A stretch of DNA of 64,000 nucleotides from Eledone cirrhosa (taxonomy: Eukaryota), in assembly GCA_964016885.1 (NCBI GenBank), contig OZ024745.1, forward strand, positions 102,486,001 to 102,550,000, in the 5' to 3' direction. The position numbers and the translations under genes are program-made. Shown here piece by piece: positions 17,527 to 48,149 of the stretch; positions within the stretch are counted from its first letter, which is position 1, and the number at the start of each line of letters is the position of its first letter. The notes beneath the pieces were generated by a model, which saw only the letters and a program-made list of their open reading frames with translations, made no database searches and was not told where the DNA came from.

Positions 17527-18208
17527 ATAGTTATGTAATAAACAACAAGATAATTATTTCATTTACCAGTGATTTCTTGAAAACAAACGAAATTTGCTTT
17601 CAGTCATCAGAATGGAAAAATCCTGGTGTATTTGTTGACAGTGGATTTTAAAAACAATAATATAATCTATATGAAAGTGAGGCTGGAAAAGGAAGAAGGA
17701 AAAGAAACAGATTAATATAAAAGTAGATAAACACACATGCACACACACACACATACATACATACACACATACACACATACACACATACACATATATATAT
17801 ATAAATACATATATACATATCAATACATACACACACACATACACACATGCATAAATATATATATACATATACACATATATAATCATACATATATACACAC
17901 GGACATATACACACACATACACATATATACACGCATACATACGCACACAGATATATGTACACACACCTACATACGCAAACACACATATATACACGCATAC
18001 ATACGCACACAGATATATGTACACACACCTACATACGCAAACACACAATTAAATATAAGAAAAAATAATAGTAAAAAAATATAATGATGTAAAATGCCGT
18101 CACATCAAAAGAAATATGAAAAATAAAAAATATATACGACTTAAAATAAAAATATATTATTATAAAGTTGACAGCGATACAGGAAATGACACAAATAAAT
18201 AAACACAC
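17527..18208. repeat. Outer left arm of a large inverted duplication
   Basis: 17527-17703 is the diverged reverse complement of 46640-46802; 18040-18208 is that of ~45628-45800. Confidence 0.88.
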
Positions 18209-18716
18209 ATGGTAAGCAATACACATATACACACACATATACATACATATATATATATAGACATGTATACACACACACATATACGCACATATATATATAT
18301 ATATATATACACATATACACATATACACACGCACATAAATACATATACACACATATATACATACATATATATATATATATATATATATACACATATATAC
18401 ATACATATATACATACATATATATATATATATATACACACATATATATACATACATATACACATATATATACACATACATACACATACATACATATACAC
18501 ATACATACATATATATACACATACATACATATACACATACATACATATATATACACATACATACATATATATACACATACATACATATATATACACATAC
18601 ATACATATATATACACATACATACATATATATACACATACACATATATACGCACATATATACATACATATATATATATATATATATATATATATATATAT
18701 ATATATATATATATCT

Positions 18717-19910
18717 ATCATCATCATCATCATCATCATCACCGTTTTACGTCCGTTCTTCCACGCTAGCATGGGTTAGACGGGTTGTCCTGTTGTGGGC
18801 AGTATCTGGTCGGCTGACCATGCCTTGCTCATACAGGAACTGATCTGGCTTGATTTCTACAGCTGGATGCCCTTCCTAACACCAACCTCATTTACAGTGA
18901 GTGCTGGGTGCTTTTTCGTGGCGCCTACACGTCCACTTTACAGTGTGGGCTGGGTGCTTTTTTACCGTGGCACCTCCACGACCACCTTGCGGGGGGGGGG
19001 GCATATCGTTTATATGCTTCAGCATGTACCCATGGGAGGTCGGGTACCCTGTATTACTGCGTGACGCCAGAAGTCACGGTCGTGTGTCATTGACTTTGAG
19101 AGGTGTAGTTGGGTAAGGTCGGCTTTTATCACCTCATCCCAAGTCATCTTGGGTCTCCCCACTCCGCGGTTTCCATCAACTTCTAGTGCTCAGCACCTTT
19201 TTATGCAGCTGTCATCCTTCATACGCATCACATGTCCATACCAGCGTAACCGCCTCTCCTGTACGCAGCATTTGATTCCTCTTATGCTCAGTCTCTCTCT
19301 CAATTCCTTTATGCTTTGTCGTTCACGTATATTACTGTTACACATCCATCGGAGCATGCAGGCTTCGTTTCTCTCTAATCTACGTAAGTCTTCCACCTTC
19401 AGCGCCCAGGTCTCACTACCATGCAACATCGCTGTTCGGATACACGCATCATACAGTCTGCCTTTCATTCTGACGGAGAAGCCTTTTGCAGCTAGCAGTG
19501 GTAGTAGTTCCCTAAACTTCTTCCATCCCGTTCTCACGCTAGTTATTGTACTTTCTGAGCACCCACCTCCGTTGCTAATTCGGTCACCTGGGTAGCAGAA
19601 GCTGTCTACTGTTTCTACAGGGCCCTCCCAGAGATTGGTGGTACTTGTTTCCTGTGGCTGTTTGCTTGCTGTTTCAGCACAGCTGCTGCATGTGAATCCT
19701 ACATTCTTAATTAAGCTTCCTGAGATCCCGCTACATCTCTTGTGTACCCATTGTTTGCATTTGGGGCAGAGAATGGAGTTCCTACCTACACCTTTCCTAC
19801 ATACTGAGCAAGGCCATTTCCCTGAGGGGATCTGGGTTCTGTTTTCTTGTCTACTTATAAGGACCTTAGTCTTTGTCATGTTGACTTTGAGGCCCTTTCT
19901 CTCTAGTCCC
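18717..19910 (-). mobile_element. RTE subfamily A 3' portion
   Basis: ORF 19190-19912 (PHD-like finger, [11 protein letters not shown]), 3' UTR as in 13645-13991, tail seen as (ATC)n at 18717-18741, TA/CA on both sides. Confidence 0.95.
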
Positions 19911-19929
19911 ATATAAAATCATATAAACA

Positions 19930-44570: not shown

Positions 44571-45537
44571 TGGTGGAAGAGGTAAATAAATAGTTGGGAA
44601 TACGACAAATAATAAATAAATAAATAAATAAATAAATAGATAAAAGGTATAAATGTTTATAGCTGATTCAGAGCACTGAAGTTCCTAGAGCAAATAATCA
44701 ATGAAAATAAACATTAAATCACTCTGTATGTAATTATGTATACATATATATATATATTAATTATATGCACACATATAATAATTATATGCACAACCATATA
44801 TATATATATATATATATATATATATATATACACACACACAACACATACATACACACACACACAGAAATAAATATCTATAAATAAAAAAGGTAGGTATGCA
44901 AAGGGTAAGGTAGAAAGGTTTAAATATAGGGGGAGATAAGGAAGAAAATGAATATAAGAGTACAGAAAGTGAGTTCAGAGAGTAATAAAAATCGTAGTGG
45001 ATGTAAGGCGTAGAGGGCAGAGAAGAATTTCAAGGTGGTTGAGTCATCGTAGGAATGTCAATCCAGTTACAGATCAGATGTGATTTCAGGCGAGGACAAC
45101 ATCTGAAGATCTCGGTCTTGGAGTTCAGGCAAGTTGAAGTGGCTTTCAAGTTTTGTAGAATCCTTTCTGTACTCTTATATTCTTTTTCTCCCTTATCTCC
45201 CCTCATATTTAAACTTTTTTCCTATGTTACTTATTTTCCTTATTCCCCCCTACTTTCTACCTTACCCTTTACATACCCACCTTTTTTATTTATAGATATT
45301 TATTTCTGTGTGTATGTATGTGTTATGTGTATGTGTATATATATATATGTGTATATAATTATTATATATATCTGTATGCATAATTACATACAGTGTGATT
45401 TAATGTTTATTTTCATTGATTATTTGCTCTAGGAACTTGAGTGCTCTGAATCAGCTATAAACATGTATACCTTTATCTATCTATTTATTTATTTATTATT
45501 TGTCGCATTCCCAATTATTTGTTTACCCCTTCCACCT
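44571..45537. repeat. Inner part of the inverted duplication (arms ~400 bp, spacer ~193 bp)
   Basis: 44571-44750 is the reverse complement of ~45370-45537; 44860-44969 is that of 45163-45310. Confidence 0.92.
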
Positions 45538-45974
45538 TTTTATATATATATATGTACTGTTGTATGTATGTACGTACGTACGTACGTACGTACGTATGTA
45601 TGTGTGTATGTGTGTGTGTGCGTGTGCGTGTGTTTATTTGTCTCGTTTCCTGTAACGCTGTCAACTTTATAATAATTTTAATTTTTACTTTTAATTTTCT
45701 TAAGTCGTATATTTTTAATTTTTTTATTTTGATGTGACGTCCTTTTGTATCATTAATTTTTTATTATTATTTTTTATTATATTTAATTGTCTGTGCGTAT
45801 GTACATATATCTATATATGTGTGTGTGTGTATATATGTGTGTATGTATGTGTGTATGTGTACGTGTATATATGTATGATTATATATATATATATATGTGT
45901 ATATATATATATGTGTATATATATATATATGCGTGTGTGTGTATGTGTGTATGTGTGTGTATATATATATATAT

Positions 45975-46245
45975 TGCCAAATCAACCTCCCAAATGCAAG
46001 GTGATTGAAAGGTATGTCGTATCTATTTATTTATAAGACTGTTTATATTGTATTTTGTCTGAAGAAGGCATAACATTGTTAATATGATATCCCTGAAATA
46101 TATATAACGAAATAAATATGGTTTTATAAATATAGTTTCCATTTATTTAATATCATAAATATACTCCAAATACTTGTTGAGTGCTTTTATATCAGTTATA
46201 AATATTTACTCGTTGTTAACCCAACAATTTAAATATAACTTTCCA
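45975..46245 (+). mobile_element. Penelope-like terminal remnant in (TA)n
   Basis: Homologous to 29297-29610, TA-flanked, contains a hammerhead motif. Confidence 0.7.
46051..46114 (+). ncRNA. Candidate type I hammerhead ribozyme with palindromic stem III
   Basis: tattttgt-CTGAAGA-aggcata...tatccct-GAA-ATATATAT-A-acgaaata: 8-bp stem I, agg/cct stem II, AUA cleavage triplet. Confidence 0.7.
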
Positions 46246-48149
46246 TGTATATATATATATATATATATATAAATGAAAGGTATAGAAAATATTGTAGCAA
46301 AAAGCCAACAGTATTCCATAATATATAAGTGACTATAGCGTCAAAATGGGAAAAATAGTTAACGTAAGATGTGGGAAAGCTAATTCAAACTCAACTCAAA
46401 AAGAATCAGGATATAGATCCATCCAACAGAATTTAGTGAAATCCAGGGAAAAATCAATTGAGCCTTAACTCATGATAAAATAAAGTTTAAAATACTCATC
46501 CTTCAATTTGGGACAACTACAAATGGTCTGTATAGTCTTGAAGACTATTTCACGAAACCTTTCAGTGGAGATGGTCCCGGTTGGAATTCGGTCGGGGTGG
46601 GGTGCGCGCGTGCGCGTGCGCGTGCGCGTGTGTGTGTGTTTCCTTCTTCCTTTCCCAGCCTCACTTTCATATAGATTATATTCTTGTTTTTAAAATCCAC
46701 TGTCAATAACTACACCAGGATTTTTTCCATTCTGATGGCTGAAAGCAAATTTCGTTTGCTTTCAAGAATGAAATAATTATCTTATGTTTATTACATAACT
46801 ATTGGGCTCTGTAACCTACATAGAGCACTCTTTTTCCCTGGGCCTTTCCGACGGAATTACTTCATTCACACACGCATATATATATATATATATATTTATA
46901 TACACACACACACACAAAAAGGTATCTATATGTACATATACTCATATACACATAAATATATATATATTAATTTTATTATTATTATTTTTTTATTATATTT
47001 ATATTTAATTGTCTGTGCGTATGTACATATATCTAGCATTTGTGTGTGTGTACACGAGTACATATATACATATACACACCAGTATATAGATATATATGAA
47101 TGTGTTTCCACATGCATGCAATAAGCTGGATATATAACCATTTGTTCTTCATTCCTCTCTTTTTTTCTTGCACACTCCAGTTCAGCCCTTCTGGATATGG
47201 AAACAATTCCAAAACAAATCTTTTGATAGGTTTACTGCAAACTCGGGTTTCCATTAAATTATATCGCCTGAAGTTGTTTTTAACAGTAAAAAAACGACTA
47301 GAAGATAGTACAAAAAGACAAGAAAACAGAGTAAGAATTTTAACTTCTGTCTTCTTAAGGGAAGAAAACAACATATTTGTGTAGCCCAGCACATTTTCTT
47401 TTGAAACAATTTTCACCAAGTACGCTAAGTTGCAAGGTTACATTATCTCTAGTTAACTTCAAACAATTGAAGAGAGTTTCTTGTGTAAACCAATAATTTA
47501 TAGAATTCTTGCAAACACATAAGATCATGTACACAATACATTTAACTAACCATAGCTTGGCAGTTTCTTTTATAATTTTCTGCCATGTCATTTTGTTTCC
47601 TTTTAGATTTTTGTCTTATTTTACTTGGCTTCTATACTTCACAACAGGTTAAATAATCTTTACATTTTCTTTGATGTATTATTTTATTTTTTTCTATTAA
47701 GAAATATATTCAAGATTTGACTTAGGAATATCCTCTCAAGCAAATGCTGTCACCATATTTGTCGCACAAACAAGAGACTTTATATGTATACCATTGAAAT
47801 AAACTTTTTTCATAGCTTTCCATGTTTTTCTGTTAATCCATATCAGACTTTTACTTGTCCATATAATACTAAAAGATCCACCATGATAAAGACTTCAGTC
47901 ATACAATTGTTAAAAGAAACTCTAGAGTGTTGATTTAATTATGAACTTAATTATTTCTTATGTAAAGAAATATGTTAGAATTTATTTTTTGAAAGAGCAA
48001 GAAGCTATAATTGACTGGAATAACCTCTTTGTTAGTATTTGTTTTATGAGCCCCAGATTGAGAAATATAACCAAGATAGGATTTGAGCTCAGAACCATAA
48101 TGTATTAACCTAGATCAGAGGTTCTCAAAGTGGGCACTACGATAATAAT

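Follow-up and report, generated by a model that had tools for sequence, protein, structure and literature searches.

How can a single internal microsatellite of a retroelement span 26.3 kb in one copy and only 70 to 90 bp in the copy lying next to it? The question is raised by a 64,000-nucleotide stretch of Eledone cirrhosa DNA (contig OZ024745.1, positions 102,486,001 to 102,550,000; hereafter the window, numbered from its first letter), in which two inverted arms meet near position 45163. We propose that positions 17527 to 46870 are a 5'-truncated Penelope-like element of the Hydra clade together with an adjacent inverted copy of its 3' end, likely the product of one insertion event, and that one of its tracts now holds 12 insertions. 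We put the probability of this reading at roughly 0.8.

Self-comparison and pairwise alignment of the window were used to locate inverted matches. In the self-comparison, 17527 to 17702 paired inverted with 46802 to 46639 at 88% identity; in the pairwise alignments, 18000 to 18259 paired with 45849 to 45543 (88.5% of ungapped columns) and 44480 to 44969 with 45620 to 45163 (91.8% identity). The gap between the matching pieces of the left arm is 26.3 kb, and the corresponding tract of the right arm is 70 to 90 bp. The window contains no N. These comparisons bore out the inverted arms and the 26-kb filling at the tract junction described in an initial annotation, with two changes of border: the left C piece begins at about 44530 rather than 44571, and the right arm extends to about 46870, including a 68-bp tail. 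The arms are composed as follows, where A, B, C1, and C2 are segments of the 3' untranslated region (UTR), tracts 1 to 3 are its internal TA/TG tracts, and ORF denotes open reading frame.

17498 to 17529, no strand: (TA)n tract at which the left Hydra copy stops on its 3' side, probably the site of the original insertion (a (TA)n preference of Hydra is given in passages of PMC8557442)
17527 to 17730, minus strand: Hydra pseudo-long terminal repeat (pseudo-LTR) segment A, with a putative hammerhead-ribozyme motif in which one core base is changed; stops at the TA tract and has no tail
17731 to 18045, minus strand: Hydra 3' UTR internal tract 1, free of interruption in the left arm
18046 to 18209, minus strand: Hydra segment B, with a deletion of about 21 bp in common with the right arm
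44530 to 44959, minus strand: Hydra segments C1 and C2 with internal tract 3; bears a 3-bp deletion private to both arms
44960 to 45164, minus strand: last ∼45 codons of the Hydra ORF and beginning of the 3' UTR; the element is 5'-truncated here, and 2 bp overlap the inverted copy
45163 to 46802, plus strand: inverted second Hydra 3' UTR copy, comprising C2, C1, a short tract 2, B, tract 1 with two guests, and A
about 45975 to 46245, plus strand: 3' end of a second Hydra family, guest in right-arm tract 1
about 46276 to 46600, minus strand: end of an unclassified dispersed repeat, guest in right-arm tract 1
46803 to 46870, plus strand: 68-bp tail, right arm only

The right arm is not free of insertions. 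Its tract 2, proposed as the empty site, is unfilled; its tract 1 holds the two guest blocks (45980 to 46241 and 46276 to 46599). In addition, the hammerhead motif of its segment A is damaged, and it has a 38-bp stretch that, like the tail, is missing from the left arm. Beyond the tail, at 46966 to 47051, is a third piece of 85 bp (Hydra segment B plus tract) that resembles the right arm more closely than the left.

What are the arms? They had been taken for an old inverted duplication of host DNA. From motifs and dispersal, they are instead the 3' untranslated end, or pseudo-LTR, of a dispersed Hydra-clade Penelope-like retroelement; an inverted segmental duplication is ruled out, as the arms are dispersed rather than low-copy host sequence. 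Each end of the right arm matched at least 40 other loci in the 3.0-Gb genome (the first-look candidates, 2,241 and 1,316 for the two ends with 40 scored each, are not copy numbers). Because 11 of the 19 exact matches of one C-segment pattern fell within the 43 copies collected, these data suggest that the genome holds on the order of 100 copies long enough to include the C segment. Two Hydra-family 3' ends were also met in 930 kb of evenly spaced DNA.

The 205 bp at 44960 to 45164, previously read as a spacer, were 94 to 98% identical to other loci, and their minus strand gives the final ∼45 codons of an ORF that extends upstream in other copies. A near-complete copy, L039 (3420 to 5723), contains reverse transcriptase (RT) pieces followed by endonuclease pieces, interrupted by frameshifts. 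Its single-ORF order of RT and then a C-terminal GIY-YIG-type endonuclease, read against Hydra-1_Obim, and its body of less than 3 kb are as expected for Hydra. L039 also has RMRWKA and SDKTKN, equivalent to the Hydra RWK and DKT motifs; in L039 and other copies, the CxCx5C linker reads CSCRKPDEC, and CxxC and CxH read CSLC..E and N..CPH (the ORF end in the window has CPR where L039 has CPH). Section 11 of PMC8557442 gives RWK, DKT, CxCx5C, CxxC, and CxH around conserved E and N as features of the Hydra clade, and the L039 frame aligned by eye with Hydra-1_Obim of Octopus bimaculoides, from the supplement of that paper, at 22 of the first 40 residues. Among five Hydra pieces, Pfam returned only a weak RT match (E, 0.024) and no GIY-YIG match. 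Segment A carries a putative hammerhead ribozyme motif, with core and stems legible by eye in L036 and L039 and laid out as in Hydra-1_Obim in the material of PMC8557442. The motif is mutated in both window copies; Rfam reported nothing over the window at its threshold, and minimum-energy folds recovered stem II only. Overall, motifs, domain order, and the by-eye comparison with Hydra-1_Obim would place the element in the Hydra clade as a distinct family.

Two other identities were considered and rejected. A Naiad Penelope-like element, our initial idea, was ruled out because the endonuclease follows the RT rather than being N-terminal. A DNA transposon with long terminal inverted repeats was ruled out by the unequal arms, by junction points that differ among loci, and by the spacer being the end of an RT-endonuclease ORF.

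Do both arms and both left pieces come from one template? A 3-bp deletion is common to the two arms and was present in none of 43 other aligned copies; genome-wide, the pattern with the deletion had 2 exact matches, one in each arm, whereas the form that keeps the 3 bp had 19. The deletion of ∼21 bp in segment B had 3 matches (the two arms and one other locus), against 56 for the undeleted form. Because of these shared deletions, both left pieces, far and near, descend from one template together with the right arm, and because the 3-bp deletion is unique to the arms, the left copy is one copy truly split by 26.3 kb, which agrees with the initial annotation. That annotation had itself raised the possibility of independent copies of a common repeat, co-linear by chance; this would apply to the arms and to both left pieces. 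The repeat is indeed dispersed, and each arm resembles other copies no less than it resembles the opposite arm, but the 3-bp deletion occurs in these two arms only and the B deletion ties the far-left piece to the right arm, so this explanation is largely refuted and hardly credible.

The geometry of the arms bears on whether they were written together. The left copy runs from 45164 to 17527 and the right copy starts at 45163, with a 2-bp overlap; the junction of the arms coincides exactly with the 5' truncation point. Passages of PMC8557442 describe the same arrangement, in which an inverted 5'-truncated copy adjoins the 5' end and a tail is found at one end only. Across loci, an opposite-strand piece adjoined the copy in 11 of the 14 loci viewed on both sides, and the tail was at one end only in all 5 pairs with both ends in view. 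It is important to note that several of these inverted-pair loci were chosen because their match lists looked inverted. Further close pairs of segment B (C4:166091074/166111864, C3:30017681/30024951, and C3:191911167/191916518) are candidate expanded inverted or tandem units.

Against a common template and a single event, the arms are not mutual best matches (the partner ranked 6 to 36 among 35 to 45 copies), 55 private substitutions separate them, and a later local duplication or gene conversion could also give the shared deletions. The left copy may have inserted alone, with the right arm a later local inverted duplication or a gene-converted neighboring copy. The one-event model needs a diverged source element for the private deletions, and none with the 3-bp deletion was found; moreover, local copying took place, because the 85-bp piece beyond the tail is right-arm-like. 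However, the ORF end is in the left arm only and the tail in the right arm only, so neither arm, as it stands, was copied from the other, and a later duplication must also account for the 38-bp stretch, for a junction placed exactly at the truncation point, and for a geometry that recurs at many loci and is published for the Penelope-like group in passages of PMC8557442. We consider a later origin of the right arm improbable and retain the single insertion of a truncated copy with its inverted 3' end.

What fills the left arm? The nest consists of 12 inserted blocks (14,599 bp) and ∼11.9 kb of alternating purine/pyrimidine tract, and TA/CA/TG tract abuts all 24 junctions of the blocks. The guest inventory of the initial annotation was accurate:

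18210 to 44529, no strand: internal tract 2 expanded to the 26.3-kb nest, with arrays of 2,089, 2,194, 3,656, and 1,086 bp and 12 blocks
18717 to 19915, minus strand: RTE-like 3' end, "RTE-A," with PHD finger and (TGA)n tail
22003 to 22411, minus strand: non-coding ∼604-bp bipartite RTE-like family, 5'-truncated copy 1
22457 to 24641, plus strand: R4/Dong-like element, 5'-truncated, of a very young family, with (ACAT)n on both sides
24691 to 25257, minus strand: bipartite family copy 2, tail-to-tail with the R4-like element
27440 to 28049, minus strand: bipartite family copy 3
28134 to 29002, plus strand: CR1-group 3' end with a 55-bp internal RTE piece joined at its 5' end
29297 to 29610, no strand: second Hydra-type Penelope-like family, 3' end as two inverted pieces
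29886 to 32728, plus strand: RTE-like "RTE-B," with an 826-amino-acid open frame, RT and PHD, and (TGA)n tail
33410 to 38266, minus strand: two-ORF CR1-group element, both frames open (394 and 1,045 amino acids, stop to stop)
41915 to 41981, minus strand: 67-bp 3' end related to the bipartite family end
42209 to 42710, minus strand: RTE-like 3' end, decayed
43790 to 43966, minus strand: RTE-like 3' end with (AGAT)n tail

Pfam found RT and zf-RVT in 22397 to 24558 (R4-like), RT and PHD in 29885 to 32362 (RTE-B), APE and RT with a weak Myb/SANT match in ORF1 in 33498 to 37687 of the minus strand (CR1-group), and PHD in 19193 to 19918 of the minus strand (RTE-A). On these domains and on clade motifs, we take the guests to belong to the RTE, R4/Dong, and CR1 clades. 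The blocks at 42209 to 42710 and 43790 to 43966 are presumed RTE-like on motifs, the restriction-like endonuclease motif of the R4-like guest is putative, and we assume the bipartite family to be RTE-related from the initial annotation and an apparent likeness to an RTE 5' UTR. Two details concern the CR1-group guests. The 55-bp RTE piece on the short copy (28134 to 28188) has similar bases at the join and is possibly a template switch between unrelated RNAs, and the 5' UTR of the long element contains a tandem duplication of ∼230 bp (37675 to 38132; 92%).

In fetched DNA, the best identities were 99.8% for the R4-like guest, 99.7% for CR1 and RTE-B, 98.3% for RTE-A, and 94% and 88% for two small nest ends. 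Since guest identities span this range, the nest likely accumulated over time and into the recent past.

Is the tract also a landing pad in other Hydra copies? We defined a tract as interrupted if it contained a non-tract block of at least 60 bp and examined copies in 10-kb fetches. Tract 2 was interrupted in 20 of 34 other copies, with 13 above 1 kb and the largest 8.0 kb (12 more unresolved); for the other two tracts, the figures were 15 of 33 copies, with 8 more unresolved, and 8 of 37, with 2 more unresolved, and for all tracts together 43 of 104 intervals contained a non-tract block. There were no split matches among 219 matches of unique segments (35.9 kb), the C segments having been selected by search. 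In 14 uninterrupted other copies, the median length of tract 2 was 202 bp. The starting size of ∼90 bp first supposed is not supported, ∼200 bp being usual, and the 70 to 90 bp of the right arm fall below the family norm. Families present in the window accounted for 23 of the 119 blocks in the expansions of other copies, and the second Hydra-type family is a guest both in the nest (29297 to 29610) and in right-arm tract 1.

Other mobile elements were seen at these loci. Other Penelope-like families, some Hydra-type, lie in or beside Hydra-copy tracts (L038, 861 to 2819; L024; L039, 7703 to 9897; L064; L065), with two Penelope-like frames of 400 amino acids in L024 and one open frame of 653 amino acids in the set. 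In L030, a replicase/helicase region (2263 to 7150), presumably Helitron-like, adjoins the Hydra copy. At L140, L119, L116, L152, and L135, R4-like and bipartite copies occur together in one short tract, often tail-to-tail, as in the nest.

Which guests seek out such tracts? As background, we used 93 evenly spaced 10-kb stretches (the 930 kb above), in which tract made up 13.2% of the DNA and a random point was at tract in 15% of cases. Searched copies of the bipartite family had tract at 29 of 29 3' ends and 25 of 29 5' ends, and for random copies at 10 of 11 3' ends. The R4-like family had 39 other, nearly identical matches; all 24 fetched flanks started with ACAT (20 of 24 passed the mask), and 21 of 22 5' ends were in tract. 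Placement was polar. On the sense strand, bipartite flanks were TG-polar (5', 56 TG and 2 CA; 3', 46 TG and 2 CA; of 72), and R4-like 3' flanks were CA-polar (28 CA and 0 TG, of 35). The nest fits this family-wide polarity, with three bipartite copies parallel to the host and the R4-like element antiparallel. The bipartite and R4-like families thus target TA/TG tracts strand-specifically across the genome. A landing pad shared by unrelated clades is supported by this targeting and by the tract at every junction of the nest. Not all guests target microsatellites, however, and RTE-A does not.

The following observations tell against the landing pad or the nest as described. RTE-A showed no tract preference (of 5 random 3' ends, 1 had tract), and preference was partial for RTE-B (7 of 13 3' ends and 3 of 9 5' ends) and for the 43790 family (5 of 8 and 1 of 3); DNA searches of the same genome with the CR1 and RTE-B 3' ends gave 0 candidates and were uninformative. 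In an otherwise CA-polar nest, the two plus-strand guests CR1 and RTE-B have TG-polar 3' flanks (29003 to 29296 and 32729 to 33090). The 219 unique-segment matches included 25 partial ones, and 22 intervals could not be resolved in the 10-kb fetches. The 42209 block, with a best relative at 88% in fetched DNA, gives no support for being younger than its host. Finally, array lengths and internal order of the nest are as given by the assembly. Arrays of 2 to 3.7 kb are difficult to assemble, and the nest may in part be an artifact in which separate loci were joined or arrays mis-sized across kilobase microsatellites. We give this very little credence, however, because the far-left B piece and the right arm 27 kb away share a rare deletion, nearly all nest tracts are of one polarity, units drift coherently along the arrays, and guest orientations obey the family-wide rules. 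Separately, we observed that the tract between RTE-B and CR1 switches polarity midway.

Why did the tract become so long? Tracts of at least 1 kb numbered 4 in the 26-kb nest and 8 (of 1,053 tracts) in the 930 kb of evenly spaced DNA (Poisson, 9e-5, for a locus chosen as extreme). Similar nests with the same guests occur elsewhere, of at least 17 kb (C12) and ∼15 kb (C8), with arrays to 5.9 kb, around loci picked for high tract content. The 26.3-kb nest is an extreme but not unique case of a pattern common in this genome. Kilobase arrays contain higher-order units that drift along their length, including ∼30 near-perfect 32-mers, and a marked unit is repeated ∼14 times on one side only of bipartite copy 1.

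The initial annotation explained this growth by a feedback loop, in which each insertion lengthens or destabilizes the tract (by target duplication, repeat tails, or nick repair) and growth draws further insertions. In its favor are the excess of long tracts, the one-sided marked unit, the two guests whose 3' flanks are opposite in polarity to the host tract, and bipartite flanks that reach at least 1 kb in 5 of 29 copies per side, against 4% expected from per-base targeting. However, the 5' and 3' flank lengths of the bipartite family were symmetric (Wilcoxon P, 0.75) and correlated (rho, 0.60), so no growth of 3' tails was seen, and most long flanks lay on smaller chromosomes or at chromosome ends, regions that have longer tracts in any case. 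Other Hydra copies with 4- to 9-kb insertions mostly keep only 0.1 to 0.8 kb of tract. Passive insertion into existing tracts fits the symmetric flanks and the target polarity shared by both flanks. Thus, the half of the loop in which a long tract attracts more insertions is plausible, the half in which insertion drives growth is unsupported by flanks that are symmetric and polarity-matched, and insertion is not needed as a cause of tract growth. We regard the complete loop as rather unlikely. Two other ideas were also set aside: the symmetric flanks rule out the kilobase arrays as 3' tails of the bipartite family, and A-to-I editing of (UA)n RNA tails is not needed as a source of TG polarity, given that 5' flanks have the same polarity and the R4-like family is CA-polar.

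Under the reading that we prefer, the element would have inserted, probably at (TA)n, writing the truncated copy and the inverted 3'-end copy in one event, with the inversion perhaps arising during reverse transcription. Guests then likely arrived one after another in the TA/TG tract as it lengthened, and the preferences of their endonucleases would account for the targeting. Because higher-order units drift along the arrays, these may have grown by slippage or unequal exchange, and because a longer tract offers a larger target, nests would continue to grow. A broader proposal, which we put forward only tentatively and think doubtful as a whole, is a self-seeding target economy: the Hydra family would spread strand-polar TA/TG tracts carried in its 3' UTR, unrelated families would read them in fixed opposite orientations, every insertion would promote growth, and the resulting multi-kilobase nests would account for much of the 13% microsatellite.

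Because two arms from one template met different fates, the locus is a clean case with a built-in control, the same tract being 26.3 kb in one arm and ∼80 bp in the other. The family offers many such pairs, which makes it testable in this genome whether insertions drive or exploit microsatellite growth. If the self-seeding proposal were true, inverted pseudo-LTR pairs would be matched filled and unfilled arms of equal age for measuring the cycle. For annotation, the locus is a warning that a single element may be split by tens of kilobases.

The remainder of the window contains further repeats. More RTE-A and RTE-B copies lie outside the nest in microsatellite-poor DNA (3799 to 5737, 9108 to 9784, and 11857 to 13993). 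A dispersed repeat of ∼200 bp, likely a short interspersed nuclear element, occurs at 6429 to 6859, 48143 to 49784, 51481 to 51706, and 53892 to 53995 and is common in fetched loci as well. At 7420 to 7673 there are five near-perfect copies of a 50-bp tandem unit, and a long element at 57962 to 63408 includes a CT-rich tandem region (58437 to 59300), a CA-rich low-complexity ORF region, and RT frames (61514 to 63408).

How does the locus compare with known systems? The nearest named family is Hydra-1_Obim (Craig et al. 2021, PMC8557442). In the material of that paper, Hydra-1_Obim and its clade have the same C-terminal endonuclease, RWK, DKT, CxCx5C, CxxC, and CxH motifs, hammerhead motif with an ACCA-n-TGGT stem III, (TA)n target, inverted 5'-truncated copy, and one-end tail. 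The present family differs in sequence (∼55% identity by eye over the first 40 residues), in its long 3' UTR with three internal TA/TG tracts, and in its tail of ∼68 bp rather than the 30 to 40 bp of PMC8557442, whose passages on Hydra make no mention of nesting inside the pseudo-LTR.

The guests also have counterparts. Like the microsatellite-targeting R4/Dong elements with a restriction-like endonuclease in passages of PMC4640811, the R4-like guest is bordered by simple repeat on either side and keeps a fixed orientation; the target here is (ACAT)n, and the clade label comes from Pfam domains and motifs. The bipartite family shares with the non-autonomous RTE elements of PMC5786205 a short non-coding repeat (∼604 bp), variable 5' truncation, and a microsatellite-bordered 3' end, whereas its strand-specific TA/TG placement has no counterpart in passages of that paper. 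In the repeat-rich genome of penaeid shrimp (PMC7878876), simple repeats travel with Penelope and RTE elements and grow longer once these have transposed; here, carried tracts are additionally reused as insertion sites by other families. In Cuscuta heterochromatin (PMC8091179, in part), the CUS-TR24 repeat gives simple-repeat seeds and targets for long interspersed nuclear elements (LINEs), forming interlaced arrays; there the host is a satellite with one LINE lineage, whereas here it is a dispersed retroelement with several guest clades. For Octopus vulgaris, the portions of PMC13282606 consulted report recently active Dong-R4, CR1, RTE, and Penelope-like families, and the word "nested" is absent from them. 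The literature searches turned up no direct account of such nests in cephalopods or of such feedback, and subscription papers or unread supplements may hold one. The ingredients are already published, namely inverted pseudo-LTRs, (TA)n-targeting Hydra elements, microsatellite-specific LINEs, and elements that carry simple repeats. The locus is a new member of the Hydra family, explained by known processes, in which an internal tract has turned into a shared insertion site.

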